Assembly: GCA_030390025.1 (NCBI GenBank)
Contig: CM059432.1
Location: 81,346,001-81,410,000 of the forward strand
From: Squalus acanthias
Lineage: Eukaryota
Direction of reading: 5' to 3'
Length of the DNA stretch: 64,000 nucleotides
In this document: positions 1 to 60,796 of the stretch, piece after piece
Layout: each line of letters begins with the position of its first letter
Position numbering within the stretch: the first letter of the stretch is position 1
Position numbers and translations under genes: made by a program
Notes under the pieces: model-generated
Told to the model about the DNA's origin: nothing
The model's input: the letters and a program-made list of their open reading frames with translations, nothing else
The model's database searches: none

Positions 1-740
1 GAGAGTCTAACCACCGCCCCATGACATTCAACAGCATTACCATCGCCGAATCCCCCACCATTAACATCCTGGGGGTCACCATTGACCAGAAACTTAACTG
101 GACCAGCCACATAAATACTGTGGCAACAAGAGCAGGTCAGAGGCTAGGTATTCTGCGGCGAGTGTCTCACCTCCTGACTCCCCAAAGCCTTTCCACCATC
201 TACAAGGCACAAGTCAGGAGTGTGATGGAATACTCTCCACTTGCCTGGATAAGTGCAGTTCCAACAACACTCAAGATGCTCGACACCATCCAGGACAAAG
301 CAGCCTGCTTGTTTGGCATCCCACCCACCACCTTAAACATTCACTCCCTCCACCACCGGCGTATCTTGGCTGCAGTGCGTACCATCTACAAGATGCACTG
401 CAGCAACTCACCAAGGCTTCTTCGACAGCACCTCCCAAACCCGCAACCTCTTCTACCTAGAAGGATAAGGGCAGCTGGTGCATGGGAACACCACCACCTC
501 CAAGTTCCCCTCCAAGTCACACACCATCCTGACTTGGAAATATATTGCCGTTCCTTCATCATCGCTGGGTCACAATCCTGGAACTCCCTATCCAACAACA
601 CTGTGGGAGTACCTTCACCACACGGACTGCAGCGGTTCAAGAAGGCGGCTCACCACCACCTTCTCAAGGACAACTAGGGATGGGCAATAAATGCTGGCCT
701 TGCCAGCGACACCCACATCCCATGAACGAATAAAAAAAAA
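1..740 (+). mobile_element. 3' end of non-LTR retrotransposon (CR1 group, Zenon-like family), runs off window start
   Basis: ORF 21-677 is an RT C-terminal region (LGVTIDQKLNW..HI, YKAQVRSVMEYSPLAW). It ends in ...CCCACATCCCATGAACGAAT plus poly(A) at ~732-740. Same family at 24343-27583, 51973-53535 and 54826-56258. Confidence 0.9.
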
Positions 741-6062: not shown

Positions 6063-6299
6063 TATTCAAATCAGTGAGATAGCCCTTCCAAAAGTTACGG
6101 GGAGTTTGGGGATTTGCCCAAGCGCCCCAGTGGTGTCCAGGACAAAAGCCCCCCACCCACCCCCCCCCGGCCACTCTTCGATTTTAAGCAATTTTGGAGG
6201 CAAAAAAATGGCTTTCCTTTCAAAATAATGCTGTTTATTTGAACGTGCAGCCCTGACAATAAAAATAAAGATCGGATGCAATTAAGGTGGTGTTCCACA

Positions 6300-6703
6300 A
6301 GGAGGCAGAGTATATAAATCGAGCGGGAGGCCCAGAGAGTGTGTAGACTGGAGCAGTGGCGGCAGTGAGGAGGCGTGTATAAATCGAGCGGGAGGCTCAG
6401 AGAGAGCGCAGACTGGAGCAGTGGTGTCAGCGAGGAGGCAGAGTATATAAATCGAGCGGGAGGCCCAGAGAGAGTGTAGACTGGAGCAGTGGCGGCAGCG
6501 AGGAGGCAGAGTATAAATCGAGCGGGAGGCCCAGAGAGAGTGTAGACTGGAGCAGTGGCGGCAGCGAGGAGGCATGTATAAATCGAGCGGGAAGCCCAGA
6601 GAGAGTGTAGACTGGAGCAGTGGTGTCAGTGAGGAGGCAGAGTATAAATCGAGCGGGAGGCTCAGAGAGAGTGTAGACTGCGCAGTGGTGTCAGCGAGGA
6701 GGC
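6300..6703 (+). repeat. Six tandem 64-68-bp monomers in CR1 5' UTR
   Basis: Unit AGGAGGCAGAGTATAAATCGAGCGGGAGGCCCAGAGAGAGTGTAGACTGGAGCAGTGGYGKCAGCG starts at ~6300, 6368, 6433, 6501, 6567 and 6632. Confidence 0.92.
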
Positions 6704-6838
6704 GGAGAACCTCCAGCAAACACAACAACAACAAAAGCAACAACTGCAAAACAGCTAAAGTGACGTCACACCCAGGGAAGGAGCTGATTGGTGAGTAGCT
6801 GGTAAGTGTTTCTAGTTAATAGTCTATTAAGTAAAGGC

Positions 6839-7790
6839 ATGGCAGGGCAGCTCAGTCCCGTGGAATGCACATCCTGTGCCATGTGGGGACTCCAGGATGC
6901 TTCCCATGACCTGGACAACCACGTGTGCAGGAGGTGTTATCAGCTGGAGGAGCTCAAGCTCTGGGTTTTGAAGCTTGAGCAGCAGCTGGTGTCACTGTGG
7001 TGTATCCATGAGGCTGAGCGCTTCGTGGATAGCACGTTTCAGGAGGTGGTCACCCCGCAGATAAAGAGTGTGCAGGCAGAGAGGGAATGGGTGATCACCA
7101 GAAAGAAGAGGAGGACCAGGCAGGTACTGCAGGAGTCCCCTGAGTGCATCTCACTCCCCAACCAGTATTCGGTTCTGAGTACTGGTGAGGGCGATGGTTC
7201 CTCTGGGGAGTATAGCCAGAGCCAAGTCTGCAGCACCACGGATGTCTCAACTGTACAGGGGGGAGAGGAAGAACAGTGGGAAAGCAATAGATGTAGGGGA
7301 TTCGATAGTTAGGGGAGCAGACAGGCGTTTCTGCGGCCGCAGACCTGACTCCAGGATGGTATGTTGCCTCCCTGGTGCCAGGGTCAAGGAGGTCACTGAG
7401 CAGCTGCAGGACATTCTGAGGCGGGAGGGTGAACAGCCAGAGGTCGTGGTCCATATCGGTACCAATGACATAGGTAGAAAAAGGGATGAGGTCCTGCAGG
7501 CAGATTTCAGGGAGCTAGGAAAGAGATTAAAAAGCAGGACCTCAAAGGTAGTAATCTGCCAATTACTCCCAGTGCCACGCGCTAGTGAGTATAGAAATAG
7601 GAGGATAGCACAGATGAATGCGTGGCTGGAAAGATGGTACAGGAGGGAGAGCTTTACATTTCTGGGGCATTGGGACCGGTTCTGGGGGAGGTGGGACCTG
7701 TACAGGCCAGACAGGCTGCACCTCAACTGAGCCGGGACCAATATCCTCGCGGGGAGGTTTGCTAGTGCTGTTGGGGAGGGTTTAAACTAA
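6839..7790 (+). pseudogene. CR1 ORF1 (Cys-rich N-terminus, coiled coil, SGNH/GDSL esterase domain), frameshifted
   Basis: MAGQLSPVECTSCAMW..HVCRRC..LEELKL, then GDSIVRG, CCLPGARV, VVVHIGTND and DRLHLN in a second frame. Confidence 0.88.
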
Positions 7791-8619
7791 TTTGGCAGGG
7801 GGATGGGCACCAGGATGTAACATTAGAAAGGGGAAATAAAGTGCTCAAAGGATTGGGCGAGGCAGAGAGCACTAAAGTAAGAAATAGTAAGGTATTGGGG
7901 GGGTCAAACTAAGAGAGAATACAGGATGGTCTAAGATGGGTTTACTGTGTATGTATGTGAACGCTCGAAGCGTAGTAAACAAGATAAGTGAGCTGCAGGC
8001 ACAAATAGTCAGATGGGAATATGATGTGGCAATAACTGAGACCTGGCTCAAAAAAGGGCAGGATTGGGTATTAAATATTCATGGTTATAGAGTGTTCAGG
8101 AAAGAAAAGAAAGGAAAGATAAGAGGTGGTGTGGCATTATTGGTCAAGGAGAATGTTACAGTGCTGGAGAGGGAGGATGTCCTGGAGGGGTCAAGGACAG
8201 CATCTATATGGCTAGAGTTAAGAAATAATAAAGGTACCATTACACTACTAGGTGTATTCTATAGACCACCAAATAGTGGGAAAGATATGGAGGAGCAAAT
8301 TTGCAGAGAAATTACAGAGAGGTGCAAGAACTATAGAGTAGTAATAATGGGGGACTTCAACTATCCTAATATAGACTGGGATCGTAATAGTGTTAAGGGC
8401 AGAGAAGGGGAAGAATTTCTGAAGTGTGTTCAGGAGAACTTTCTTGATCAGTATGTTTCCGGCCCGATGAGGGAGGAGGCATTGTTGGATCTGATTCTAG
8501 GGAATGAGGTAGGTCAAGTGGAGCAAGTGTCAGTAGGGGAACATTTAGGGAACAGTGATCATAGTATCATAAGGTTTAGAGTAACTATGGAAAAGGACAG
8601 GGAGCAATCTAGAGTAAAA

Positions 8620-18448: not shown

Positions 18449-18700
18449 AATACAACTCGAAAAATCAATCTTTAGCTATTATTTTTAAGGAGGAAACTTT
18501 AAAGTTAGAAAGGGGGGCTGTATTTTGCAAAAGTTTTACACTTCATTTCAAAATTTAATCCATATATAACGTTATTGATAGTGATTCAAAATCTTTGTAC
18601 TTAAATTCAGCTGAGACAAATTGGAGTCTAAAATTATACCATTTACCTAAACTCATTCATCAAGCAAAAAATCCTGCACAAAATCGATTTCTATTGGATA

Positions 18701-19171
18701 GAAAGAAAGAAAGGTTTGCATTTATATAGCGTCTTTCACGACCACTGGATGTCTCAAAGCACTTTACAGCCAATGAAGTACTTTTGAAGTGGAGTCACTG
18801 TTGTAATGTGGGAAACACAGCATCCAATTTGCACTCAGCAAGCTCCCACAAACAGCAATGTGCTAATGACCAGATATTCTGTTTTTATTATGTTGGTTGA
18901 GGGATAAATATTGCTCAGGACACCAGGGATAACTCCCCTGCTCTTCCTCGAAATAGTGCCATGGGATCTTTTTTGTCCACCTGAGAGAGCAGACGGGGCC
19001 TTGTTTAACATCTCATCCGAAAGACGGCACCTCTGACAGTGCAGCACTCCTTCAGCACTGCATTGGAGTGTCAACCTAGCTTTATGTGCTCAAGTTCCTG
19101 GCGTGGTGACTTGAACCCACAATCTTCTGACTCAGAGGCAAGTGTCCTACCAACTGAGCCACAGCTGACAC
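18701..19171 (-). mobile_element. tRNA-derived DeuSINE (SacSINE1/AmnSINE-like)
   Basis: rc head GTGTCAGCTGTGGCTCAGTTGGTAG (A box) ..GGTTCAAGTC (B box), Deu-like core CACATTGCTGTTTGTGGGAGCTTGCTG, tail GCTATATAAATGCAA plus (CTTT)n. Confidence 0.85.
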
Positions 19172-19687
19172 TTACAGCGAATATACCCAAGTTCAAACAC
19201 CTACAGAATATTAGTTCAGAAAAAACAAATGGTACACACTGAATCACTAAAACACGCCACCAATGTCATTCGATTCCTTAGGAACCACCTGTGTAATCCT
19301 TGTAAAGAAAAATATTTTCCCTATTGTGCGGATTCAACCCAACTTGCTAATGGAAACACCACCCTTCTTTAAATGTGATTGGTGGAAAGTTTGGCGATCG
19401 TTGTTTTAGGATCATAGTTGGTTCGGCTTTGCTGCCAATCATTTGGTGTGCATAATTGCTCAGAAAGAGTTTAATTGACCTGAGCTGAGGCAAAGAGGTA
19501 GAGAAGGATGTGGTGCTCAGGAACTCAGTGTAGCAAAGTTTATTTTTCATGAGTTTAAAGCACATTTAAGTGAGGCCGTGAGATAGACATCAAATCTGTG
19601 AGACTCATGGAAAATCCGTGGGAGTTGACATTACTGCTACTAATGGTCATCATGAACTTTCCAGTGGTGTTTTACACAACGATAGAG

Positions 19688-20118
19688 GAAAGAAAGAAAG
19701 AACTTGCATTTATATTGCGTTTTTCACAACCTCAGGATGTCCCAAAGTGCTTTACAGCCAATGAGATACTTTTTAACGTGTAGTCACTGTTGTAATGGAG
19801 AAAACGCGGCAGCCAATTTGTGCACAGCAAGGTCCCACAAACAGCAATGTGGTAATAGTGATGTTGGTTGAGGGATAAATATTGGCCAGGTCACTGGGGA
19901 GAACGCCCATGCTCTTCTTTGAACAATGCCATGCGATCTTTTGTGTCCACCTGAGAGAGCAGACAGGGCCTTGGTTTAACGTCTCATTCAAAAGACAGTG
20001 CAGCACTCCCTTAGTACTAGATTACTAGATTATGTGCTCAGGTCTCTGGAGTGGGGATTAAACCCACGACCTTCTGACTCAGAGGCGAGAATGCTACCAA
20101 CTGAGCCACAGCTGACAC
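19688..20118 (-). mobile_element. DeuSINE copy
   Basis: Colinear with 18701-19171. Confidence 0.85.
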
Positions 20119-23059: not shown

Positions 23060-24342
23060 ATAGTGAGAGTGTAGGAATTTTATTGCATTTTGTTGTGATA
23101 GTGGTGTATATGGCTGACATTTCTTTCTGGTGTATTTGTCTTGTAAATTTCTTCATGCTCATTGTCTATGATGTCTCAGTACCCCTCCACCATGGCTGCC
23201 TGTAACTGAGTAACTGAAGCCAACCTGTAAGAAAGCTGGGTTTCGGTAGCCTGACATATGCCAAGGAACCAGATGAATCCTTAATTCCCTCCTTTAACTC
23301 CTTACTAATGAACCGTCTGAGGTTTTAGCTCTCAGTATAGGTCTAGGGATGAATGATGTCTATCTCGACTCCTGGACCATCTTACACTAACCAGTTTGGA
23401 TCAAAATTAATTAAATTTACTAACCCTTGATTAGATTAACCCCCAAGCTGCTGAGTGAGTGAATTAACTCTTTCTTGCCAAATCACCAAAAAAGAAACCA
23501 GACCACAAGTCATTCACTAAGCACTATTTATTGGTTACAAATCACATCTAAAAATAAAAGCTGGGTACACAAATCCTTAATAGACATGCCTAAATGTAAT
23601 CAGAGTCACCAAGCAATTGAGAAGCAAATCATTAATGGGCAGAGTTACTTAACAAAACAAGTAGCAGAACTTACACAGGCAATTCAGTGGTTCACTGTAA
23701 ATCAGCACTAATGGATGCGGAACATTAACTGTAGCAGGGTCTGAGGCTATAAATTGGTGAGATTACTTTAAGAGTAATTCCTTAGATAGCTGACAAGTTA
23801 ACAGCTGTGAATAGCAAGTCTATGAAATAGCTCAAGCCTACGTGTGTGATTCAGAAGGTTCAGAGCTTGCACGATAATCCTCACGTGTGACGTGGTTGAG
23901 TCAATCTCCAACAGGTATGAGGTTCTTGCTGCCTGTGTGGATGAGGGCAAAGTCTGCAGGGTGGATGAGCAAACTGACCACAGCACTGTGGTACAGCAGG
24001 TCATTCAAGTGGGGGGAGTGAAAAGGAATGTTGTAGTGGTAGGGGATAGTATAGGCAGGGGGATAGATACTGTTCTCTGCAGCCGCAACTGGGAGTTCCA
24101 AAGATTGTGTTGCCTGCCAGGGTTAAGGATATCTCCTCGCAGCTGGAGAAGAACTTGGAGTGGGATGGGGAGGATCCAGTTGCCATAGTCCACGTAGGAA
24201 CCAACGACGTAGGTAGAACTAGGAATGAGATTCTGCTGAGAGAGTTTGAGGAGCTAGGGTCCAAATTAAAATGCAGAACCTCAAAAGTAATAATCTTGGA
24301 TTGTTACCTGAGTCACGCGTAAATTGGAATAGGGACAGCGGA

Positions 24343-27300
24343 TTTTTGTTTTTATTCGTTCCTGGGTGTCGCTGGCAAGGCCAGCATTTATTGCCCATCC
24401 CTAATTGGCTTTGAGAAGGTGGTGCTGAGCCGCCTTCTTGAACCACTGCAGTCTGTGTGGTACTCCCACAGTGCTGTTAGGGAGGGTGTACCAGGATTTT
24501 GACAGCGATGATGAAAGAACGGCGATATATTTCCAAGTCAGGATGGTTTGTAACTTGGAGGGTAACTTGCAGGTGATGGTGTTCCCATGCGCCTGCTGTC
24601 CTTGTCCTTCTAGGTGGTAGAAGTCGTGGGTTTGGGAGGTGCTGTCAAAGAAGCCTTGGCGAGTTGCTGCACTGCATCCTGTAGATGGTACACACTGTAG
24701 CCACGGTGCACCGATGGTGGAGGGAGTGAATGTTTAAGGTGGTAGATGGGGTGCCGATCAAGCAGGCTGCTTTGTCCTGGATGGTGTCGAGCTTCTTGAG
24801 TGTTGTTGGAGCTGCACTCATCCAGGCAAGTGGAGAGTATTGAATCACACTGCTGACTTGTGCCTTGTAGATGGTGGAAAGCCTTTGGGGAGTCAGGATG
24901 TGAAACGCTCGCCGCAGAATACCCAGCCTCTGACCTGCTCTTGTAGCCACAGTATTTATGTGGCTGGTCCAGTTAAGTTTCTGGTCAATGGTGACCCCCA
25001 GGATGTTGATGGTGGTAGATTCAGTGATGGAAATGCCGTTGAATGTCAAGGGGCGGTGGTTAGACTCTCGCTTGTTGGAGATAGTCATTGCCTGGCACTT
25101 GTGTGGCGCGAATGTTACTTGCCACTTATCAGCCCAAGCCTGAATGTTGTCTAGGACTTGCTGCATGCAATCATGGACTGCTTCATTATCTGGGGAGTTG
25201 CGAATGGAACTGAACACTGCAATCATCAGCGTACATTTCCACTTCTGACCTTATGATGGAGGGAAGATCATTGATGAAGCAGCTGAAGATGGTTGGGCCT
25301 AGGACACTGCCCTGAGAAAATCCTGCAGTGATGTCCAGGGGCTGAGATGATTGGCCTCCATTAACCACAACCATCTTCCTTTGTGCTAGGTATGACTATA
25401 GCCAGAGGAGAGTTTTCCCCCGATTCCCACTGACTACAATTTTACTAGGGCTCCTTGATGCCACACTTGATATCAAGGGCAGTCACTCTCACCTCACCGC
25501 TGGAATTCAGCTCTTTTGTCCATGTTTGGACCAAGGCTGTAATGAGGTCTGGAGCTGAGTGGTCCTGGCAGAACCCAAACTGAGCATCAGGTGAGCAGGT
25601 TATTGGTGAGTAAGTGCCGCTTTATAGCACTGTTGACGACACCTTCCATCACTTTGCTGATGATTGAGAGTAGACTGATGGGACGGTTTTTGGCCGGATT
25701 GGATTTGTCCTGCTTTTTGTGGACATGACATACCTAGGCAGTTTTCCACATTATCGGGTAGATTCCAGTGTTGTAGCTGTAATGGAACAGCTTGGCTAGA
25801 GGCGCAGCTAGTTTCTGGAGCGCAACTCTTCAGCACGACAGCTGGGATGTTGTTGGGGCCCATAGCCTTTGCTGTATCCAGTGCGCTCTTCTATTTCTTC
25901 ATATATCGTGGAGTAAATCGAATTGGCTGAAGACTGGCTTCTGTGACGTTGGGGACGTCAGGAGTAGGCCGATATGGATCATCTACTCGGCACTTCTGGC
26001 TGAAGATGGTTGCAAACTCTTCAGCCTTGTCTTTTGCACTCGCATGCTGGGCTCCGCCATCATTGAGGATGGGGATATTCATGAAGCCTCCTCCTCCTGT
26101 TAGCTGTTTAATTGTCCACCACCATTCACGACTGGATGTGGCAGGAATGCAGATCTTTGATCTGATCCATTGATTGTGGTATCGCTTAGCTCTGTTTGTA
26201 CCATGCTGCTTTCACTGTTTAGCATGCATGTAGCCCTGTGTTGCAGCTTCCCCAGGTTGGCACCTCATTTTTCAGGTATGCCTATTGCTGCTCCTGGCAT
26301 ACTCTTCTGCACTCCTCCTTGAACCAGGGTTGGTCACTTGGCTTGATGGTATGGTAGAGTGAGAGATATGCCGGGCCATGAGGTTACAGATTGTGGTGGA
26401 GTACAAGTCTGCTGCTGCTGATTGCCCACAGCGCCTCATGGATGCCCAGTTTTGAGCTGCTAGATGTGTTCTGAATCTATCCTATTTAGCACAGTGGTAG
26501 AGCCACACAACACGATGGAGGGCGTCCTCAGTGTGAAGACAGGTCTTGGTCTCCACAAGAATTGTGCGGTGGTCACTGCTACCAATGCTGTCATGGACAG
26601 AGGCATCTGCGACAGGTAGATTGGTGAAGACGAGTTCAAGCAGGTTTTTCCCTCGTGTTGGTTCTCTCACCACCTCCCGCAGGCCCAGTCTACCAGCTCG
26701 GTCAGTAGTGGTGCTACCGAGCCACTCTTGGTGATGGACATTGAAGTCCCCCACCCAGAGTACATTCTGTGCCCTTGCTACCCTCAGTGCTCTTCCAAGT
26801 GCTGTTCAACATGGCGGAGTACTGCTTCATCAGCTGAGGGAGGGTGGTAGGTGGTAATCAGCAGGAGGTTTCCTTGCCCATGAGACTTCATTGGATCTGG
26901 AATCAAAGTTGAGGACTCCCAGCGCCACTCCCTCCCGACTGTATACCACTGTACCGCCACCTCTGGTGGGTCTATCCTGCCGGTGGGACAGGACATACCC
27001 AGGGATGGTGATGGAGGAGTCTAGGACATTGGCTGAAAGATATGATTCTGTGAGTATGACTATGTCAGGCTGTTGCTGGACTAGTCTGTGGGACAGCTCT
27101 CCCAATTTTGACACAAGTCCCCAGATGTTAGTGAGGAGGACTTTGCAGGGTCGACTGGCCTGGGTGTGCCGTTGTCCTGTCTGAAGTCAGTGCTGAGGTC
27201 GATGCTGGGTGGTCCGTCGGGTTTTATTCATATTATTGTTTTCTGTAGCTGGTTTTTACAACTGAGTGGCTTGTTAGGCCATTTCAGAGGGCAGTTAAGA

Positions 27301-27583
27301 GTCAACCAAAGTGCTCTGGGTCTGGAGTCACATATAGGCCAGACCAGGTAAAGGAGGCAGATTTCCTTCCCTAAAGGACATTAGTGAACCAGATGGGTTT
27401 TTACGACAATCCGTTAGTTTCATGGTCATCATTACTGATACTAGCTTTTTATTCCAGATTTATTTAATTAACTGAATTTAAAGTCCCCAGCTGCCGTGGT
27501 GGGATTTGAATTCATGTCTCTGGATCATGAGTCCAGGCCTCTGGATTACTAGTCCAGTAACATAACCATTATGCTACCGTTTC
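24343..27583 (-). mobile_element. Apparently full-length ~3.2-kb Zenon-like LINE: tRNA-derived 5' head + single EN-RT ORF, no ORF1
   Basis: APE (TNIWGL, ILTESYL, GDFNVH, SDH) from ~27140, RT ([17 protein letters not shown]). Family tail and A-rich end at ~24343-24420. Confidence 0.88.
27501..27580 (-). promoter_or_regulatory. Type-2 Pol III internal promoter-like head (A box, B box)
   Basis: A box TAGCATAATGG (rc 27566-27576), B box-like GAATTCAAATCCC (rc 27501-27513). Confidence 0.65.
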
Positions 27584-30419
27584 TATATCAGAGTGTTAAA
27601 TGCGTGGCTCAAGGAGTGGTGTGGGAGGAAGGGGTTTCGATTCATCGGGCACTGCCAGCAGAACTGGGGAAAGTGGGAGCTGTTCCGTTGGGATGGGCTC
27701 CACTTGAACTGGGCTGGGACCAATGTCCTGGCAAAATCGAATAACTAGGGCTGTAGATCAGGCTTTAAACTAAAAAGGTGGGGGGGGGCAGGGGGGAGGG
27801 GTTAGGTGAGGGGAAATTTAGAAAGCTAAAGAGAAAAGTCAAGGCAATGGAGAAGTGTAGCGATTTGGGTAAAGATAAGCAGAGTGTGACAGGAAGGGAC
27901 AGAGAGTTTAATGGTAATAGTGCATCAATGTTAACAAGTTAAAAATAAAGGCTCTATCTGAATGCATGAAGCATTCTTAACAAGATAGATGAACTAGTGG
28001 CACAAATAGGGATAAATGGCTTTGATCTAATAGCAATTACAGAGACGTGATTGCAAGCTGACCAAGGTTGGGAACTAAATATTCCAGGGTACTTGATGTT
28101 ACGAAAAGAGAGGCAGCATGGAAAAGGAGGTGGCGGGGAAGGGGGGCGGGGGCGGGGATGGGGGGTACGGCTAGCCCTAATAATAAAGGATGACATAAGG
28201 ACAGTAGTGAGAAAGATCTTGGCTGGGAAGATCAGGAAGTAGAATCAGTATGGGTGGAGATAAGAAATAACAAGGGGCAGAAATCACTGGTGGGAGTAGT
28301 TTATAGGTCCCCAAGCAGTAGTTATACCGTTGGACAGAGTATTAATCAACAAATAATAGGAGATTGTAACAAAGGTAATACAATAATCATGGGGGACATT
28401 AATCTTCATATAGAATGGGCAAATCAAATTGGCAAAGATAGTCTGGAGGACGAGTTCATGGAATGCATTCGAGACAGTTTCCTGGAACAATACATCATGG
28501 AAACAACCAGGGAAGGGGTTATTTTAGATCTTGTATTGTGTAACGAGACAGGGTTAATTAGTAATCGCATAGTAAATGATCCTCTGGGGAAGAGTGATCA
28601 TAATATCATAGAATTTCACATTGAGTTTGCGAGTGAAATACTTCAGTCCTAAACTAGTGGCTTAAACTTAAATAAAGCCAATTACATAGGTATGAGTGGC
28701 ATGTTGGCTAAGGTAGATTGGGAAATTAGATTAAAAGGTATGATGGTAGATAAGCAGTGGCAAACATTTAAAGAAATATGCCAAAATTCTCAATGAGTAT
28801 ACATTCAATTGAGAAATAAAAATTCCACAGGAAAAGTGATCTCTCCGTGGCTAACGAAAGAAGTTAAGCAATGTATTAGATTAAAACAAGAGGCTTATAA
28901 TATTGCGAAGATTGTAAGCCTAATAATTGGGAGAGCTTTAGAAACCAGCAAAGGATGACCAGAAATTTGATAAAAAGGGAGAAAAAAGAATATGAGAGTA
29001 AACTAGCAAGAAATATAAAAACAGCTTCTACAAGTATGTAAAAAGGAAGAGAGTAGCAAAAGTAAGCGTTGGTCCCTTAGAGGCTGAGACAAGTGAAATT
29101 ATAATGGGAAATAAGGAAATAGCAGACTTTAAACAAATATTTTATATCTGTCTTCACAGTAGAAGATACAAAAAGCTTATCAAAAATAGTGTGGAACCAA
29201 GGGGCTAATAAGAGTGAGGAACTTAAAGTAATTAATATCAGTAGAAAAAAAGTACTTGGAAAACTAAAGGGACTAAACGCCGACAAATTCCCTGGACCTG
29301 ATGGCCTACATCCTAGGGTTCTAAAGAGGTGGCTGCAGAAATAGTGGAAGCATTGGTTGTGATCTTCCAAAATTCCCTAGATATAGACAGGTTAATGAGT
29401 GGGCAATAAGGTGGCAGATGGAGTATAATGTGGGGAAATGTGAGGTTATCACTTTGGTAGGAAAACAGAATATTTTTTAAATGGTGAGACACTATTAATT
29501 GTTGGTGTTCAGAGAGATTTAGGTGTCCTTTTACAGGAAACACAGAAAGTTAGCATGCAGGTACAGCAAGCAATTAGGAAGGCAAATGGCATGTTGGCCT
29601 TTATTGCAAGGGCGTTGGAGTACAAGAGTTAGGAAGTCTTACTACAATTGTACAGGGCTTTTGTGAAACCACACCTGGAGTACTGTGCACAGTTTTGGTC
29701 TCCTTATCTGAGGAAGGACATACTTGCCTTAGAGGCGCTCAATGAAGGTTCACTAGATTGATCCCTAGGATAAGAGGGTTGTCCTATGAGAAGAGATTGA
29801 GTAGATTGGGCCTATACTATTTGGAGTTTAGAAGAATGAGAGGTAATCTCATTAAAACATATAAGAATCTGAAGGGGATTGACAGGGTAGATGCTGAGAG
29901 GTTGTTTCCCCTGGCTGGAGAGTCTAGAACTAGGGGGCATCGTCTCAGGATAAGGGATCGGCAATTTAAGACTGAGATGTGGAGGAATTTCTTCATTCAG
30001 AGGGTTGTGAATCTTTGGAATTCTCTACCCCAAAGGGGTGTGGATGCTGAGTCCTTGAGTATATTCAATGCTGAGATAGATATATTTTTGGACTCTAGGG
30101 GAATCAAGGGATATGGGGATCGGGCGGGAAAGTGGAGTTGAGGTCGAAGATCAGCCATGATCTTATTGAATGGCGGAGCAGGCTCGAGGGGCTGTATGAC
30201 CTACTCCTGCTCCTAATTGTTATGTTCTTAGATTCTTTCTTTCTTGGGACGCAAGCGCTGGCTTCTGGTGAACAGAACTGTGCACAGTACTCCAAGTGTG
30301 GTCTAACCAAGGTTCTATGTAAGTTTAACACAACTTCTCTGTTTTTGAATTCTATTCCTCTAGAAATGAACCCCAGTGCCTTGCTTGCACTTTTTATGAC
30401 TTTGTTAACCCGATTTCAA

Positions 30420-32029: not shown

Positions 32030-33084
32030 TTACTTTTCAAGGAGTAGGCTGCCTCCTTATTCTTCCTACCAAATTGGACCACCTCACACTTGTCTATATT
32101 GAACTTCATTTGCTCATTCTGCAAGTTTATTAATATCTTCTTGTCATTTGTCACTGTCTTCCTTAGTATATACTACACCTCTCAATTTGGAGTCATCTGC
32201 AAATTTTGAATTTGTACTTCCGATTCCCAATTCCAAATCGTTTATGTAAATGGTGAACAATAGTGGTCCCAGCACTGATCCCTGGGCAACACCGCTTCCC
32301 ACCTTTCACCAGTCTGAATAACTACCTTTAACCCCTACTCTCTGTTTTCTGTTTTGTAGCCAGGTTGCTATCCATTCTACTATGAGTCTACTATGCGGTA
32401 CCTTATCGAAGGCCTTTTGAAAGTCCATTTATATTACATCCACTTCATTACCCTTGTCTACTGTTTCCATTACTTCTCCAAAGAGTTTCATAAGGTTGGT
32501 CAAACATGACCTTCCCTTTTGAAATCCATGCTGACTATTATTTATTATATTTTCGGTATCTAGGTGTTTTTCTGTTACATCTTTGCGTAAAGATTCCAAT
32601 CCGACTTAATTTCTAATACGACTTTATGACTTAGTTCCTTAAAAGCCTGTATTAACTATTTATTTCCTATAACTCAGTTCAACAGCTGAACTCCGTATTG
32701 TATAGGCATACTCGGGCAGTTTACAGAATATTGCTTTTATGAATCTCAAAGGCAACCCTTTGGCCAATTTTATGGGGCACTGTTCCTACAAACTATAACT
32801 GTATCTTGGAGTTTGGACCTTTAAGACAGTATAGCAGCAGTGGAAGTGTGCCCATGGCTTGCCTGAGGTCTACACTGCAGATGCCACTGGTGTTGCCATG
32901 TACTCGATAACTGCAGTGCAGACAACTTTTTCTTCACGGCATTATTTGTAGCAGGCGCAGAGCATATTGGGTGTTGATCTGCCCTCCTCCACTTAGACTA
33001 TGCAAGCAAGCAAGTGCCGCCACACTATAGCTTGGATTTCCTTGGAAAAACTGCCAGTATTTGGGTGATTTCACAGTGATTTTT

Positions 33085-33158
33085 TTTTAAAATTCGTTTA
33101 TGGGATCTGGGCGTCACTGGCAATGCCAGTCTTTATTGCCCATCCCAAGTTGCCCTTG
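33085..33158 (-). mobile_element. Zenon-like LINE/SINE 3' tail fragment
   Basis: rc of TCAAGGGCAACT..GGATGGGCAATAAA..CCCAGATCCCATAAACGAAT plus A-tract. Confidence 0.7.
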
Positions 33159-34622
33159 ATGAGGCGTTCTGCCATAACTTCACCCCGCCCAAAAACAGAT
33201 TGTCAGTATTTTACTGTTGTAAACCTGCCAGTGACTTAAGCTGCCTACTCCGAGACTACCCCACCACATATAAGTGGCTGCAGAGTTTCCTGCCTCTATA
33301 GACCACTGCTGTACAGAAGCAGTCTACTAGGGATTTCCTGTCCTAGGCCAATAATATGGGCGATGGGCACTCCCGGTGCAGTCCTGCCCCTAGCAGGGCC
33401 TAGCATCAACAGAAGGGGCAGGATATTTCAACACAGTTGCAGGCCTCTCAGGCCACTGAGTTCAGGGCCTTCTGGCTGTTGATGCAGATCAGCCTCAATT
33501 GCCTCTAAAAATCCTGGAACGGATCTATCTACCTTACCTTCCCGTCTTCAGTCATTGGACGGTCTGGTTGTAAGTGTCCAGGAACAGGCCATTTTTCAAT
33601 GGGCATCCTTGCTCTGGGGCGCCCAGCTAGTGATGTTCCAGGACAATGAGGTGGGAAACCAGGAACTCCCTTCCCATCTCATTCACAAATCTGCGGCGGG
33701 CCAACTCTGTGCCCCCCACCCCCCCAACCTCAGTCAAGACCATGAAATCCTGGGGCAACATAAAACCTGACAAATTAGGTCTCCATATTTTTTTCATATC
33801 TTTTGCACCTGGGGAAATGGCCGTTTCCTGGGGCAAGGAACAAGAAAATCTACCCTGCTATTTCTAACACTATTCCTTATAATTACATCTGATGAGCTCA
33901 TTCTTTCCACGTTCCTCACCCCAAGTCTCCTCCCAGCTGCCGATTTGTATTTCAGAACTGCACGAGTTGTCACCTATCAGAGGCTTTAAATTTTGGGCCT
34001 CTTGCCCAACAGAAGTTCCCACTGCTTTTCCCTGCTACAGACCTACCGTCGACACCACAAATGCCATTTCATCCTTCTCACTTGCTGCCCTGTTTACTCC
34101 TGTTAATTGTTACTTCTCCGGTGATGCAATGTATTGCTACCAATTTGTCTAGTAGCAGCTAAGAAACTTGTGACTGATTGATTTGAATGTCAGGTAAGCA
34201 TAGGATGGCAGGTAATAATATGATATAAATCTATTACCAGAGGACTATGAAATGTGTATCTTATCTGATATCCGATCAGGCTACAATTACACCAGGTTAT
34301 TACAGCAGCAGGATGTGTGTAAAGTAGGAGTCTGTATGAATGTATAACTGATGCAAGCTTAATCCTGATCCAGGAGTAGAATTACAATGGTCTGTACCCA
34401 TTCATCTCATTTATAAACATTGAAGTCCTGATCCAGGCACAACATTCATCCAAGCAAGTTATAGATTTCTCAATGTTCAAATATATAAATAATGTAAACT
34501 TTAAATATATCACTTAAAATATATTTTATATTTCCCTTTTATACTGGACTCCATAAAATGCTGTTCCAATATTCTGCAACTGTGGTTTCAGGGTTTATTT
34601 TTGCTAGAAAAACAGATTAATA

Positions 34623-42170: not shown

Positions 42171-42613
42171 AAAGAAAGAACTTCCATTTATAGAACACCT
42201 TTCATATCCTCAGGACATTCTAAAACCCTTCACAGCCAATTAAGTACTTTTGAAGTGTAGTCACTGTTGTAACGTAGGCAAACATGGCAATCAATTTGTG
42301 TACAGCAAGATCCTGCAAATAGCAATGATTATAATTTGACAAGATAATCCGATTTAATGTTGTAGGCTGAGGGATAAATGTTGGCCAGAACAACAGGTGA
42401 ACTCTTCTTCAAATAGATCTTTTACATCCAACTGAGAGAGCAGATGGAACTTCAGTTTAACGTCTCATCTAAAAGACAGCACCTCCAACAGTGCAGCACT
42501 CCCTCAGTATTGTACCGAAATGTCAGACTAGATTATGTGCTCAAGTCTTTGGAGTGGGGTTTGAACCCATGATCTTCTGACTCCAAGCGCTACCACTAAG
42601 CCAAGCCTGACAC
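42171..42613 (-). mobile_element. DeuSINE copy (more diverged)
   Basis: Colinear with 18701-19171. Confidence 0.8.
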
Positions 42614-42869
42614 TTTAAGGTGGGATGCAACTTGTAACACAGCTATGTAAAAGTATAAAGTACAGACTTTTATTAAAAAATAAGATAATAACTTTGATGA
42701 AATCAGATTACTAATGTTTATGTTTCAGATATCACACATACAGAAGCCCTTACATATAGCACCTCATCTTTCGATTAGGCACTCTACAACCCTCTGGACT
42801 CAACATAAAGTTCAACAATTTCAGATCATAACCCCGGTCCCTATCACATATATATATATTTATTTTTTA

Positions 42870-44230: not shown

Positions 44231-44856
44231 GCATGTAGAATCATAGAATGATACAGCACCGAAGGAGGCCATTCGGCCTATTGTGCCTGTGCTAGCTCTT
44301 TGAAAGAGCTATCCAATTATTCCCATTCTTCTGCTCTTTCCCATAGCCTTGTAAATTTTTCCACTTCAACTATTTATCCAATTCCCTTTTGAAAGTTATT
44401 ATTGAATCCACATAGGACAGGGTTGGACTTAGGCAGTGCATTCCAGATCATAACAAATTGTTGCATAAAAATGTTTTCCTCATGTTGCTTCTGGTTCTTT
44501 TGCCAATTACCTTAAATCTGTGCCCTCTGATTACCGACCCTTCTGCCACTGGAAACAGTTTCTCCTTATTTACCCTATCAAAACCCTTCATGATTTTGAA
44601 CACTTCTATCAAATCTCCCCTTAATCTTCTCTGCTCTAAGGAGAAAACCCCAGTTTCTCTAGTCTCTCCACGTAACTGAAGTCCATAATCCCTGATACCA
44701 TTCTAGTAACTTTCCTCTGCACCCTATCTAAAGCCTTGACATCCTTAAAGTGTGGTGCCCATAATTGGACACAATACTCCAGCTGGGGCCTAACCAGTGT
44801 TTTATAAAGGTTTAGCATAACTTTCTTGATTTTGTACTCAATGCCTCTATTTATAA

Positions 44857-45038
44857 AAGAAAAAATAAAGACTTGCATTTATATAGCGCCTTTCACGACC
44901 ACCAGACATCTCAAAGCGCTTTACAGCCAATGAAGTACTTTTGAAGTGGAGTCACTGTTGTAATGTGGGAAATGCGGCAGCCAATTTGCGCTCAGCAAGG
45001 TCCCACAAACAACAATGTGATAATGACCAGATAATCTG
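44857..45038 (-). mobile_element. DeuSINE 3' half
   Basis: Deu core and tail. TTATAAA on both sides. Confidence 0.8.
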
Positions 45039-46435
45039 TTATAAAGCCAAAGATCCCGCATGCCTTTTTAACAGCCTTCTCAACTTGCCCTGCCATGTTC
45101 AAAGACTTGTGTATGTACACCCTCATGTCGCTCTGTTCCTGCACCCTGCTAAAATTATACCATTTAGTTTATACTGCTTCTCATTCTTCCTACCAAAATG
45201 AATCACTTCACATTTCTCTGTGTTAAATTTCATCTGCCATGTGTCTGCCCATTTCACCAGTCTGTCTATATACTCCTGAAGTCTGTTACTATCCTCCTCA
45301 CTGATTACTACATTTCCAAATTTCGTGTCATCTGCAAACTTTGAAATGATGCCTTGCATACCCAAATCCAGGTCATTAATATATATCAAAAAGAGCCATG
45401 ATCCCAACATTGACCTCTGGGGGACACCACTGCACATTTCCTTCCAGTCTGAAAAATAGCCGTTCACCACTACTCTCTGCTTTCTGTCCCTCAGCCAATG
45501 TTGTATCCACGCAGCCGCTGCCCCTTTAATCCCATGGGCTTCAATTTTGCGAACAAATCTATTATGTGGCACTTTATCAAACGCCTTTTGAAATCCATAT
45601 GCGCAACATCAACCGCACTACCCTCATCCACCCTCTCTGTTACTTCATCAATTAAGTTAGTCAAACATGATTTGCCTTTAACAAATCCATCCTGGCTTTC
45701 ATTTATTAACCCATATTTTTCCAAATGCCAATTAATTTTGTCCCGAGTTAATGTCTCTAAAACTTTCCCCACCAGCAACGTTAAGCTGACTGGCCTGTAG
45801 TTGCCGGGTTTAGCAACCTAGGATGCATCCAATCAGACCGGGTGACTTTTCTACTTTGGCCACTGCCAACCTTTTAAGTACCTCCTCTTTATCTATTTTA
45901 ATCCTATCCAATTTCTCTACTACATCCTCCTTTACTGTGACATTGGTAGCATCCTCTTTAGTGAAGACAGATGCAAAATTCTCATTTAGTACCTCAGCCA
46001 TACCCTCTTCCTCCACAAGAAGAGCTCCTTTTTGTCCCTAATTGGCCCCACCCTCCCTTTTACTATTTATGTCTTTCTAAAAGACTTTGGATTCCCTTTT
46101 ATGTTACCCGCTAATCTATTCTCGTACACTCTCTTTGCCCCTCTTATTTCATTTTTCTGTTCTCCCCTGTACTTTTTGTATTCAGCTTGGTTCTCTACTG
46201 AATTATGAGCCCAACATTTGCCATAAGCCTCCTTTTTCTGTTTCATTTTAATCTCTATTTTTAGTCATCCAGGGAGCTCTAGCTTTGGATGCCCATCTTT
46301 TCCCCCTGGTGGGAATATGTCTAGTCTGTACCCGAACTATCTCCTCTTTGAAGGCCTTCCATTGCTCATTTACTGTTTTACCGGCCAATCTTTGATTCCA
46401 ATCCACCTGGGCCAAATCCCTTTTCAACTGACTAG

Positions 46436-46843
46436 GTGTCAGCTGCGGCTCAGTGGGTAGCACTTTCTCCTCTGAGTCAGAAGGTTGTGGGCACAAAAAT
46501 CTAGACTGACAGTACTGAGGGTGTGCTGCACTGTCAGAGGTGTTGTTTTTAGATGATACATTAAACTGAGGCCTCGTCTGCTCTCTCAGGTGGATATAAA
46601 AGACCCCATGATGCTATTATCCCTGGTGTCCTGGCCAATATTTATCCCTCAATCAACAACACTAAAACAGATTATTTAGTCAATATCACATTGCTATTTG
46701 TGGGAGCTTGCTGTGTGCAAATTGGCTGCTGCGTTTCCTACATTACAACAATGACTGTACTTCATTGGCTGTAAAGCGCTTTGGGACGTCCAGTGGTCGT
46801 GAAAGGAGCTATATAAATGCAAGTCTTTCTTTTTCTTTCTTTT
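46436..46843 (+). mobile_element. DeuSINE copy (B box deleted)
   Basis: Head GTGTCAGCTGCGGCTCAGTGGGTAG, Deu core, tail GCTATATAAATGCAAGTCTTTC. TTTTCA(A)CTGAC on both sides. Confidence 0.85.
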
Positions 46844-48399: not shown

Positions 48400-49530
48400 A
48401 CTGATTGATTCGCTGCACTTTGCTACTTGGACAGCCTGGCTCTCTATTCTCTCAGAATCAATTTAGCAGCAGAGGAAAGTTGCAAAGTTGAAAAGTGAAT
48501 CTGAGCTGTGATACTTTGAGGAATGGCTGAACATGCGAGAGAGCGAGCACCAAGATTTTCAGACAATGCACTGGAGGTCTTGGTGCAAGACGTGGAGAGA
48601 GGAGAGACATCCTGTATCTGTAGCAAGGCAGGAGACCTTCCAGACATATGCTCAGGAGGAAGTGGGAAGAAGTTGCAGCGGAGTTCAATGCCAGGAGTGT
48701 TGCTCCAAAAGTAAGGATGCAGTGCAGGAAGAAGTTTAACAATCTGACACGAGTTGTCAGGTGAGTGAATTCATCTTCAAATGGCATATACTACCAACAG
48801 CAGCTCCAGCTTCATGAAGGGAAGACATCTCATGCATTGGTTGTCGCTGAAGTTGAGGCAAAAGAATTGCTTCCTAAAGACCCTCAGTGGATATGGCCTT
48901 CTGCTGAGAGCACCTCCTCCTCTTCCCTCTTCCAGTAGCTTGTTCTTCTCTGCATGGCCTTCTTCATTCTCCCAGTCATACTCAATTCCCAGAGGAAGCC
49001 CTACCAGGCCATCCATGTCTGGAAACAACTTGTTTCAGCACAAGCTTTTAAATGAACAGGAAAGTACTTCAGCACCAGCCAGACCACTCCCTGTAGACTA
49101 TTCAAACTTTAACCAAGTACAGGAAAACTGCAAAAACACATAGAATTGCACCAGCAGCCAGAAGAAATAATCCAGCAACTGTCCTGTAAGTAGTTCATGA
49201 TCCCTTTAAATAGCGCTGCTGGTGGTACTTCATTCTGCTTAAAGTCGTGTTCAGCTGTGCGAGGTTAAAACAGGACATTGGCTGGAGTGTGGAGTTTAAA
49301 AATGGCAGCGCTGGCGTCAAATCGGCGGTGCACATTGATTGACGTCATAATCTGCCTGCTCTGCATGCTGCCGGAGACCAATAGTTGCGCGCGCGGAAAC
49401 CCCTTTACCAAGATGGCATCCTGCGCACTTCCCATCGGAAGTTTGCGCACACATCTAGGACTCCATTTTTGAGTGTTAAGTTGCCGCGTAGTGCCTGAAA
49501 AACGGGTGCTACAGAGCCCAATTTAGCCCC
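48400..49530. mobile_element. Deleted Harbinger remnant (Myb exon 1 on +, transposase N-terminus on -)
   Basis: MAEHARERAPRFSDNALEVLV..CRKKFNNLTRVV then GTGAGT. Minus strand RRPYPLRVFRKQF..FSDNQC. Right end rc GGGGCTAAATTGG. Left end not found. Confidence 0.8.
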
Positions 49531-51972: not shown

Positions 51973-53535
51973 TTTTTTAATTTGTTTATGGGATGTGGGC
52001 GTCGCTGACAAGGCCAGCATTTATTGCCCATCCCTAACTGCCCTTGAGAAGTTGGTGGTGAGCCGCCTTCTTGAACTGCTGCAGTCTGTGTGGTGAAGGT
52101 ACTCCCACAGTGCTGTTAGGGAGGGAGTTCCAGGATTTTGACCCAGCGACGATGAAGGATCAGCGATATACTTCTAAGTCAGGATGGTGTGTGACTTGGA
52201 GGGGAACTTGGAGGTGATGGTGTTCCCATGCGCCTGCTGCCCTTGTCCTTCTAGGTGGAAGAGGTCGCGGGTTTGGGAGGTGCCGTCGAAGAAGCCTTGG
52301 CGAGTTGCTGCAGTGCATCTTGTAGATGGTACACACTGCAGCCACGGTGTGCTGCTGGTGGAGGGAGTGAATGTTTAAGGTGGTGGATGGGGTGCCAATC
52401 AAGCGGGCTGCTTTGTCCTAGATGGTGTCGAGTTTCTTGAGTGTTGTTGGAGCTGCACTCATCCAGGCAAGTGGAGAATATTCCATCACACTCCTGACTT
52501 GTGCCTTGTAGATGGGGGAAAGGCTTTGGGGAGTCAGGAGGTGAGATACTCGCCGCAGAATACCTAGCCACTGACCTGCTCTTCTTGCCACAGTATTGAT
52601 GTGGCTGGTCCAGTTAAGTTTCTGGTCAATGGTGACCCCCAGGATGTTGATGGTGGGGAATTCGGCGATGGTAATGCCGTTGAATGTCAAGGGGTGGTGG
52701 TTAGACTCTCTCTTGTTGGAGATAGTCATTGCCTGGCACTTCTGTGGCACGAATGTTACCTGCCACTTATCAGCCCAAGCCTGAACGTCATCCAGGTCTT
52801 GTTGCATGCGGGCATGGACTGCTTCATTATCTGAGGAGTTGTGAATGGCACTGAACACTGTGCAGTCATCAGCGAACATCCCCATTTCTGACCTTATGTT
52901 GGAGGGAAGATCATTGATGAAGCAGCTGAAGATGGTTGGGCCTAGGACACTGCCCTGAGGAACACCTGCAGCGATGTCCTGGGGCTGTGATGATTGACCT
53001 TCAACCACCGCAACCATCTTCCTTTGTGCTAGGTATGACTCCAGCCAGTGGAGAGTTTTCCCCCCGATTCCCATTGACTTCAGTTTAGGCTCCTTGATGC
53101 CACACTCAGTCAAATGCTGCCTTGATGTCAAGGGCAGTCACTCTCACCTCACCTCTGGAATTCAGCTCCTTTGTCCATGTTTGGACCAAGGGAGCCGAGT
53201 GGTCTTTGCAGAAGCCAAACTGGGCATCAGTGAGCAGGTTATTGGTGAGTAAGTGCTGCTTGATAGCACTGTCGACGACACCTTCCATCACTTTGCTGAT
53301 GGTTGAGAGTAGACTGATGGGGCGGTAATTGGCTGGATTGGATTTGTCCTGCTTTTTGTGGACAGGACAAACCTGGGCAGTTTTCCACATTGTTGGATAG
53401 ATGCCAGTTTTGTAGCTGTACTGGAACAGCTTGGCTAGAGGCGCGGCTAGTTCTGGAGCACAAGTCTTCAGCACGATAGCCGGGATGTGGTCGGGGCCCA
53501 TAGCCTTTGCTGTATCCAGTGTGCTCAGCCGTTGC
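51973..53535 (-). mobile_element. 5'-truncated Zenon-like LINE
   Basis: [33 protein letters not shown]. Family tail at ~51973-52050. Confidence 0.9.
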
Positions 53536-54194: not shown

Positions 54195-56770
54195 TAGAAT
54201 ATACAGCACAGAAACAGGCCATTCGGCCCAACCAGTTCATTCCGGCATTTATGTTCCACTCAATCCTCCTCCCATCCTTCCTCATATAACTGTATCAGTA
54301 TAACCTTCTATTCCATTCTCCCTCATATGCTTATCTAGTTTCCCCTTAAATGCATCTATACTATTTGCCTCAACTACATCCTGTGGTAGCGAGTTCCACA
54401 TTCTCACCACTCTCTGGGTAAAGAAGTTTATGGCCTCTCTCTCTACTCTATCAAAACCGTTCAGAATTTTAAAGACCTCTATTAGGTCACCCCTCAGCCT
54501 TCTCTTTTCAAGAGAAAAGAGACCCAGCCTGCTCATCCTTTCCTGACAGGTATAACTTCACAGTTCTGGTATCATCCTTGTAAATCTTTTTTGCACACAC
54601 TCCAGTGCTTCTATATCCTTTTTATAATATGGCGACCAGAACTGTACACAGTACTCCAAGTGTGGTCTAACCAAGGTTCGATACAAGTCTAGCATAAATT
54701 ATCTACTTTTCAATTCTATCCCTCTAGAAATAAACCCTAGTGCTTGGTTTGCTTTTGTTATGGCCTTATTGACCTGCATGATTTGTGTATTTGTACTCTC
54801 AGATCCCTTTGCTCCTCTACCCCATCAACATTGGCACTGGCACTGGAAAACTGCCCAGGTATGTCCTGTCCACAAAAAACAGAACATACCCAATCCGGCC
54901 AATTACAGCCCCATCAGTCTACTCTCAATCATCAGCAAAGTGATGGAAGGTGTCATCGACATTGCTATCAAGCGGCACTTGCTCACCAATAACCTGCTCA
55001 CTGATGTCCAGTTTGGATTCTGCCAGGACCACTCAGCTCCCAACCTCATTACAGCCTTGGTCCAAACGTGGACAAAAGAGCTGAATTCCAGAGGTGAGGT
55101 GAAAGTGACTGCCCTAGACATCAAGGCAGCATTTGACCGAGTGTGGCATCAAGGAGCCCTAGTAAAACTGAAGTCAATGGGAATCGGGGGGAAAACTCTC
55201 CACTGGCTGGAGTCATACCTAGCAAAAGGAAGATGGTTGTGGTGGTTGGAGGTCAATGATCTCAGCCCCAGGACATCGCTGCAGGAGTTCCTCAGGGCAG
55301 TGTCCTAGGCCCACCCATCTTCAGCTGCTTCATCAATGACCTTCCCTCCAACATAAGGTCAGAAATGGGGATGTTCGCTGATGACTGCACAGTGTTCAAT
55401 GCCATTCACAACTCCTCAGATAATGAAGCAGTCTATGCCCGCATGCAACAAGCCCTGGACGACATTCAGGCTTGGGCTGATAAGTGGCAAGTAACATTCG
55501 CACCACAGAAGTGCCAGGCAGTGAATATCTCCAACAAGCGAGAATCTAACCACCGCCCTTTGACATTCAACGGCATTACCATCGCAGAATCCCCCACCAT
55601 CAACATCCTGGGGGTCACCATTGACCAGAAACTTAACTGGACCAACCACATAAATACTGTGGCAAGAAGAGCAGGTCAGAGGCTGGGTATTCTGCAGTGA
55701 GTATCTCACCTCCTGACTCCTCAAAGCCTTTCCACCATCTACAAGGCACAAGTAAGGAGTGTGATGGAATACTCTCCACTTGCCTGGATGAGTGCAGCTC
55801 CAACAACACTCAAGAAGCTCAACAGCATCCAGGACAAAGAAGCCCGCTTGATTGGCACCCCATCCACCACCTTTAAACATTCACTCCCTCCACCACCGGC
55901 ATACCGTAGCTGCAGTGTGTACCATCTATAAGATGCACTGCAGCAACTCGCCAAGGCTTCTTCGGCAGCACCTCCCAAACCTCTACCACCTAGAAGGACA
56001 AGGGCAGCAGATGCCTGGAAACACCACCACCTCCAAGTTCCCCTCCAAGTCACACACCATCCTGGCTTGGAAGTATATCGCCGTTCCTTCATCGTCGCTG
56101 GTTGAAAATCCTGAAACTCCCTCCCTAACAGCACTGTGGGAGTACCTTCACCACATGGACTACAGCGGTTCAAGAAGGTGGCTCAAGGGCAACTAGCGAT
56201 GTGTAATAACTGCTGGCCTTGCCAGCGACGCCCACATCCCATGAATGAATTTAAAAAATTCTTATTTTCCAAGTAATATGTGACCTCCTTATTTTTCTTG
56301 CTCACACTAATCTAAATTCATTTGCCAATTATATGCCTATTCTGCAAGTTTATTAATGTCTTGTAATTTGTTGTAGTCCTCCTCAGTGTTGACTATCCCT
56401 TCCAATTTGGTGTTGTCTGCAAATTTAAAAATTGTGTTTTTGATTCCAAAGTCTAAATTGTTAATATAAATTGTGAACAACAGTGGTCCCAGCACTGATC
56501 CTTGTGGGACCCCACTTCTCACCTTCTGCCGCTCTGAATAGCTACCCTTTACCTCTACTCGCTACTTTCTGGCTTGCAGCCAGCTAGCTGTCCATTCTGC
56601 TACTTGTCCCCTGACTCCGCATGCTCTGACCTTATTCATTAGTCTATTATGTGGTACCTTATCGAAGGTTTTGGAAATCTAGATATATTACATTTGCTAC
56701 ATTACCCCTGTCTCCTTTCTCTGTTACCTCTTCAAAGAATTCAATGAGGTTGGTCAAGCAAGATGTTCCC
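54195..56770 (-). mobile_element. CR1 fragment split by a Zenon-like LINE
   Basis: 3' end at ~54195-54825. RT ([16 protein letters not shown]) at 56259-56770. Confidence 0.85.
54826..56258 (+). mobile_element. 5'-truncated Zenon-like LINE
   Basis: WKTAQVCPVHKK..ALDIKAAFDRVWH..FADD. Tail CCCACATCCCATGAATGAATTTAAAAAA. Confidence 0.9.
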
Positions 56771-60795: not shown

Positions 60796-60796
60796 A

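Follow-up and report, generated by a model that had tools for sequence, protein, structure and literature searches.

Zenon LINEs of sharks and rays are the closest described relatives of the element reported here. In the available portions of the study that names them (Stuart et al. 2026, PMC13343379), SquAca_Zenon-1/2/3 and the CarCar, RhiTyp, ScyCan and HypSab_Zenon-1 elements are about 3.3 kb long, with one APE endonuclease–reverse transcriptase (RT) ORF, no ORF1 and an A tail, and the lack of ORF1 and the poly(A) tail are given for all Zenon elements. Several described SINEs are likewise assembled from parts of a LINE. Bov-B/Bov-A/Bov-tA and the RTE- and Vingi-derived SINEs, as presented in the available part of PMC5786205, are built from the 5′ part of the partner LINE and its 3′ end, as is the short partner described below; the sources of such bipartite derivatives listed there are only RTE, Ingi, Vingi and R2, with the CR1 group absent. 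In the model set out in that source (Kojima 2018), deletion comes first, a tRNA head is acquired afterwards and the LINE remains a Pol II unit, whereas the Zenon LINE is already headed. SacSINE1 and the Deu-SINEs (PMC5499810 and PMC2746220, in the portions available) share with the present case a tRNA-derived head, a shark host and a LINE-derived tail, but the tail of the 463-bp SacSINE1 is L2-related and that of the Zenon element is the LINE's own. Bivalve tRNA SINEs mobilised by CR1-Zenon also place Zenon tails on tRNA-headed SINEs; there, however, only tails of 35–61 bp are shared, 8/9 of the reconstructed LINE partners (from several clades) have an ORF1, and no shared head is reported in the part of the source available (PMC11481361).

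LINEs that encode protein are usually assigned to Pol II and non-coding SINEs to Pol III, and a LINE with a conserved tRNA promoter breaks this division. Here we analyse a stretch of 64,000 nucleotides from Squalus acanthias (the window; GCA_030390025.1, CM059432.1, 81,346,001–81,410,000) that contains a decayed Zenon LINE with a tRNA-like 5′ end. The family is already known, and the window LINE shows no difference in kind from the named elasmobranch Zenons as they appear in the available portions of PMC13343379; the tRNA-headed architecture appears to be undescribed and, judged from sequence, is well supported. A literature search that left most subscription papers, Repbase and Dfam outside its scope returned no description of a tRNA-headed autonomous LINE, and the main text of PMC13343379, as available, has 0 matches for 'tRNA' and 'polymerase III', leaving the head and the short partner unremarked. 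Three short motifs had no match in paper texts, and exact sequence patterns had none in genome, viral or metagenome contigs. We conclude that the tRNA head is almost certainly a family-wide trait of elasmobranch Zenon. The fuller picture, of a shark and ray LINE with a Pol III-made 3.3-kb RNA from a tRNA-derived promoter, cap-free (perhaps AUG-free) translation and its own SINE arising by deletion, may hold, although we give it slightly less than an even chance.

Insertion into a CR1 ORF1

The LINE occupies 24344..27584 on the minus strand (3,241 nt) and is a full-length but decayed Zenon-type element, as judged from the continuity of its flanks and its likeness to SquAca_Zenon-1 over the first ~330 nt. 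This ~3.24-kb endonuclease–RT element is inserted into the esterase ORF1 of a CR1 LINE, for which the intact CR1 ORF1 paralogue at window 7290–7800, encoding a GDSL esterase (PF13472, E 4.6e-14), served as the empty-site reference; the paralogue at 60799 was unusable for this purpose. On the left, alignment with the reference reaches position 7606 (window 24343); on the right, it picks up again at position 7605 (window 27585). Because the flank alignments meet, the host ORF1 is contiguous across the insertion and any target duplication is at most 2 bp (AT), possibly 24342..24343 and again 27585–27586, although an overlap of two paralogue positions is too short for certainty. The 5′ half of the host ORF1 (23850..24343, plus strand) matches paralogue positions 7326–7556 by tblastn (E 1.9e-20), with no Pfam match of its own, and the 3′ half (27585..27750, plus strand), followed by the host ORF2, matches positions 7605–7751 and PF13472 (E 0.0045). 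There is a single insertion site for the LINE within the host CR1, and the initial annotation, which had described an insertion bracketed by two CR1 ORF1 halves, was correct except for a shift of one base in the ends.

Two other features of the CR1 copies were noted. A different repeat breaks the CR1 ORF1 near 60799 (60300–60800) and has a second copy at 48846–49357, and a tandem repeat of ~67-nt units lies at 6287–6707, upstream of a CR1 ORF1.

Coding region, linker and tail

From its 5′ end, the LINE consists of ~325 nt of head and body, an A-rich linker and then the endonuclease–RT frame. The coding part (24501..27231, minus strand) comprises the remains of a single APE endonuclease–RT ORF, recognised through Pfam (PF14529, E 7.4e-08; PF03372; PF00078) and tblastn with relatives of ~960 amino acids. 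Endonuclease homology starts at 27168–27141 and RT/C-terminal homology stops near 24501, with 13 stops in 850 in-frame codons in addition to frameshifts between them. The body was earlier said to run into an endonuclease ORF; the endonuclease homology lies where this predicts, but its reading frame is broken. The window copy is dead, with mutations in its B box as well. An ORF1 is absent as previously reported, with no space for one before the endonuclease, an arrangement that is ordinary for Zenon rather than special to this copy.

The non-coding body, or 5′ UTR (27260..27489, minus strand), is present in 7/7 elasmobranch consensuses and common to the short partner, with joints at 27257/27260. 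Between body and ORF lies a linker of 36 nt (27222..27257, minus strand) of which 23 are A, and which is A-rich but of variable length among the Zenon consensuses. The absence of an intervening SINE tail or poly(A), stated in the initial annotation, therefore stands in part: no copy of the 3′ tail is found within the LINE, but the A-rich linker does separate body and ORF.

An open frame of 49 codons (27227–27081, minus strand) overlaps the start of the endonuclease out of frame. In the consensuses an AUG stands at the start of this frame, and the endonuclease frame seems to be without an upstream AUG; the frame may be an upstream ORF or a signal for frameshifting or reinitiation, or CpG decay may have created it as an artefact. 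The ATG that the window copy has at 27231, in frame with the endonuclease, is apparently copy-specific: the stingray consensus, the one consensus traced as far as the endonuclease motif, has its conserved AUG in a different frame (by eye).

The 3′ tail (24344..24440, minus strand) forms a stem-loop with a short A-rich end, although the fold is not significant (z −1.45), and is common to three truncated copies and one lone tail. These further copies are the 3′ part of an element cut by the window start (1..740, plus strand, 88.9% identity), two 5′-truncated elements (51973..53526, minus strand, 88.2%; 54844..56258, plus strand, 87.0%) and an isolated tail with extreme 5′ truncation and no body upstream (33079..33159, minus strand, 83–85%), which had been placed at 33085–33158 and proves real but slightly longer. 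Short A-rich ends are seen in the window LINE and four other copies, and T-rich plus-strand loose ends occur at 24363 in 4/4 sequencing runs.

A tRNA-like head

The first 95 nt of the LINE (27490..27584, minus strand) form a tRNA-like head (fold z −2.04). It has an anticodon-like hairpin and a second hairpin, a long one, between its A and B boxes. Against the Rfam tRNA model it reaches 20.7 bits (E 0.22), short of the gathering score, 29. ARAGORN called no tRNA in the window and none in 50 of 160 related loci, a negative that is uninformative because the program misses the head itself. The A box (27566..27576) starts at +9 and has no mismatch to TRGCNNARYGG, and the B box (27502..27512) has two mismatches to GGTTCRANTCC; the SquAca consensuses keep the B-box G that is missing from the window copy (by eye). 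These findings bear out the initial description of a minus-strand head with an A box and a B-box-like motif, and an A/B-box pair of such quality arose in 1.3% of 300 shuffles. In run X6, 616 contigs end heterogeneously at 27578, marking the 5′ end of the LINE.

The head's second hairpin (27555–27520, minus strand) is a near-repeat of the anticodon-like one in the dogfish consensuses, as it is in the window copy. The near-repeat is absent from white shark, whale shark and catshark, and we read it as a local duplication or conversion.

The head across elasmobranch Zenon LINEs

Ten Zenon consensuses from Table S2 of Stuart et al. 2026 (PMC13343379) were compared over their first 400 nt. Seven of seven shark and ray consensuses, from five species, begin with the head, body and linker, and 0/3 hagfish and coelacanth consensuses have the head (by eye); those three contain T runs. 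The window copy differs from SquAca_Zenon-1 at ~21 positions in ~330 nt and is thus ~94% identical to it (by eye), and its endonuclease start matches those of SquAca_Zenon-3 and HypSab_Zenon-1. Searching the supplement, in which 1,003 vertebrate CR1-group consensuses are each given for 400 nt from the start, for six B-box 10-mers gave six occurrences, all in elasmobranch Zenons; in the seventh elasmobranch consensus, from stingray, the 10-mer is one base short (by eye). By eye, white shark and dogfish keep the B box in their consensuses but differ by two double-sided pair changes in the hairpin that lies between the two boxes. In all five species the consensus 5′ ends lie a few bases before the A box, which is the Pol III start position.

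Contigs from 4/23 listed runs, representing four organisms, gave a further view of the same region; runs X19 and X20 (6% of words) were left out. Contig depth over the LINE declines from the 3′ towards the 5′ side, the usual pattern for a LINE, and goes up over the head and body; in the four runs it then drops steeply beyond 27588, by ~3- to 40-fold relative to the neighbouring bin. Contigs that bridge body and endonuclease, at ~80–83% identity, come from two organisms and account for 2 of the 32 pieces listed, a further 668,225 lying outside the listing (X6 record 24, 26999–27308; X9 record 32, 26997–27344). The joining of head and endonuclease at one junction in many copies, proposed in the initial annotation as a check, is therefore seen in 7/7 elasmobranch consensuses and in bridging contigs.

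The window LINE has the features by which Zenon elements are recognised: a single APE endonuclease–RT ORF without ORF1, a poly(A) tail in the form of the short A-rich ends, and DNA identity to the named consensuses. In a quick RT tree of 46 rows that held no labelled Zenon reference, the window row fell in no starred set. Since 0/3 other vertebrate Zenons have the head (by eye) and the related loci considered below have no match to it, the head looks like a gain on the elasmobranch branch, as far as sequence comparison goes.

As a separate observation, the annotated sawshark (Pristiophorus japonicus) protein P0015 includes a piece 72% identical to the RT region of the LINE, probably as an artefact of the gene model.

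A short partner element

The search for SINEs made of head and tail, also suggested initially, led to an element of ~395 nt (325 + 70) consisting of head, body and tail, defined by contig joints in 4/4 runs. Of the 15 joints listed (from 8,127), those with the most contigs run from 27257/27260 to 24403–24439, with counts of 25, 49, 27 and 8 in the four runs; the main 3′ joint is at 24403–24407 and a rarer one at 24439, the letters between the two sides being mostly unread. In the genomic-size runs X1, X6 and X9, the head and body are 1.7–3.0× deeper than the endonuclease bins, and although depth is no copy number, this excess suggests that the short form may be common. An 8-fold head-over-endonuclease depth in run X16 was discounted: that this run is RNA is conjecture, and expression cannot be read from contigs.

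With its tRNA-like head and A and B boxes the window LINE resembles a SINE2, but at 3.24 kb and with endonuclease–RT remains it is neither short nor non-coding; only the ~395-nt derivative fits that class. The short partner also agrees with Kojima's bipartite scheme in joining a LINE 5′ part to its 3′ end, but departs from it in that the tRNA head, which the scheme places outside the autonomous LINE, is carried by 7/7 LINE consensuses.

Origin of the head

The Zenon lineage gained a tRNA-derived 5′ end whichever of two origins applies, the donor being perhaps an older SINE, perhaps a tRNA directly. We favour, as probable, that the short form arose by deletion from an already headed LINE rather than being an older SINE that the LINE captured, because it is colinear with the two ends of the LINE, its joint lies at the end of the 5′ UTR, and there are two 3′ joints, at ~24407 and 24439; an internal deletion suffices to produce it. 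A headed LINE would offer a one-step route from LINE to SINE.

The converse order is somewhat less probable, but a serious contender: a SINE with head, body and Zenon tail would have come first, and the LINE would have taken its 5′ part by template switching, the 'reverse capture' of the initial annotation in its strict sense, and independent of the polymerase used. SINE and LINE RNAs are known to undergo template switching with each other (PMC4824008, in the part available), such a switch could have left the A-rich linker behind, and the restriction of the head agrees with capture, in that other Zenons lack it (0/3, by eye) and no convincing A/B pair stands upstream of 49 related loci (of three candidates, L001 and L126 were inspected). 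Such a SINE was not found outside the Zenon family, however, and the head is unrelated to the other SINE of the window, which leaves deletion from a headed LINE as the preferred reading.

Transcription of the LINE

For the full-length RNA, we consider that Pol III transcription has slightly better than an even chance of being correct. It is favoured by the A box near +9, by consensus 5′ ends that fall just ahead of that box in every species, and by a B box that is kept as the intervening hairpin changes. The active ancestor would have been a one-ORF (endonuclease and RT) Zenon with a tRNA-derived internal promoter at its 5′ end. With TFIIIC and TFIIIB assembled on the A and B boxes, transcription by Pol III would begin at +1, follow the T-run-poor 3.3-kb strand through the templated A tail, and end at a T run of the flanking DNA. 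The LINE protein would then bind the 3′ stem-loop and the RNA would be inserted by target-primed reverse transcription. As the proposed RNA starts at +1 and is reinserted in this way, each full-length copy would bring its own promoter, and the ~395-nt partner would be LINE RNA minus the coding part, moved in trans. Against the proposal, Pol III RNAs are normally short and uncapped, and the tRNA match lies under the Rfam gathering score. A Pol III-made Zenon RNA would be a natural kilobase-long Pol III mRNA needing cap-free translation.

The scarcity of T runs is consistent with this proposal. The sense strand has one TTTT in the 3242 nt of the window copy, absent from both copies that cover its site, and the three other copies have none, compared with 54 TTTT in 15,149 nt of eight CR1 stretches of the window. 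None of 139 related ORFs has fewer TTTT per kb (median 6.9 per kb), although the set is mostly AT-rich and only 3/139 are GC-matched. Against a mononucleotide shuffle the scarcity holds (P 0.03), but it is not significant by dinucleotide shuffle (1 versus 2.4 expected, P 0.27) or synonymous-codon shuffle (1 versus 2.66 expected, P 0.18); there is no specific avoidance of Phe TTT (5/11 versus 57/90, P 0.79), and a GC-rich relative (L089), whose 5′ end lies outside its contig, is equally TTTT-poor (0.35 per kb). Counting sense-strand T runs, as had been recommended, thus yields one in ~3.2 kb, compatible with Pol III yet not significant beyond composition.

A reading to which we assign a lower but substantial likelihood keeps the head as a family-wide trait and assigns the coding RNA to Pol II, driven from the body or from host promoters, with the tRNA-like part retained as RNA structure or for a short Pol III partner with which sequence is exchanged. 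LINEs are regarded as Pol II units (PMC5786205, in the part available), a capped RNA would solve the problem of translation, composition accounts for the T-run scarcity, and the excess depth over head and body leaves room for a common short form. On the other side, the consensuses of all five species begin where Pol III would start, and the LINE retains no upstream region that could serve as a separate promoter. Even under Pol II transcription, such heads are liable to be misannotated as SINE insertions in shark genomes. Between Pol II and the Pol III transcription that we slightly prefer, the question is testable because a few intact ORFs exist: among long Zenon copies numbering hundreds to thousands per species (denominators of 59–2313 in Table S3), PMC13343379, as available, gives 3/612 in stingray, 1/1419 in whale shark and 1/294 for SquAca_Zenon-3.

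A one-off chimera, in which a SINE lies beside or was once fused with a truncated LINE, is extremely improbable and was ruled out, for although the three other window copies are headless, these are 5′-truncated or cut by the window edge, whereas the same junction recurs in 7/7 consensuses of five species and in diverged contigs of two organisms, the host CR1 has one insertion site, and no full-length relative lacking the head or carrying an ORF1, the finding named initially as pointing to such an event, is present among the elasmobranch Zenon consensuses.

The other SINE of the window

A separate tRNA-headed SINE of ~465 nt is present in five copies (18700–19174, 19688–20118, 42171–42615, 44853–45043 and 46433–46840), three of them with an A/B-box pair. 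It is probably SacSINE1, whose length of 463 bp fits. Its alignments with the head, body and tail of the LINE gave shuffle-level scores and no similarity, and an assignment of the LINE body to SacSINE1/Deu was dropped accordingly. The tail of the LINE is its own and not of L2 type, and the LINE has no blastn match to the L2-like stretches of the window or to this SINE. The last ~60 nt of the SINE resemble the 3′ end at ~36970, in an alignment that did not beat shuffles.

Related loci outside sharks

With 11 aligned RT proteins we fetched 160 loci of apparently eukaryotic LINE DNA in metagenome contigs and bins, among which the best RT identity is 50% and no close invertebrate sister element is included. 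None of the 160 matches the head or body, and the body has no homology to 57 upstream regions of related loci (best z 2.35, under the shuffle maximum). No relative was found among viral sequences, and a homology search with the endonuclease start gave no match among longer proteins. An A/B-like pair stands upstream in 3 of the 49 loci with enough DNA, against 0.7 expected; two of these (L001 and L126) were rejected as tRNA heads, owing to a direct repeat and a poor B box, neither having an Rfam tRNA match, and the third (L073) was left out.

One relative, L089, has an intact 953-codon endonuclease–RT ORF (34–2892), a GC content of 56%, one TTTT and a poly(A) tail, on a contig that stops 33 nt upstream; a search for a partner element in its genome returned L089 only. 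Loci L081–L160 come from contigs of apparently eukaryotic LINEs in many GTDB symbiont bins and other metagenome-assembled genomes, most likely through contamination from hosts or co-sampled organisms. Short motifs recur among the 5′ regions of related LINEs, with a blastn match between L081 (upstream region) and L126 (185–365). The direct repeat of L001 (390–485) is ~60 nt long, with a core that recalls a hammerhead ribozyme but no Rfam ribozyme match; by eye, a motif of this kind can also be made out in the consensus of hagfish EptBur_Zenon-2.
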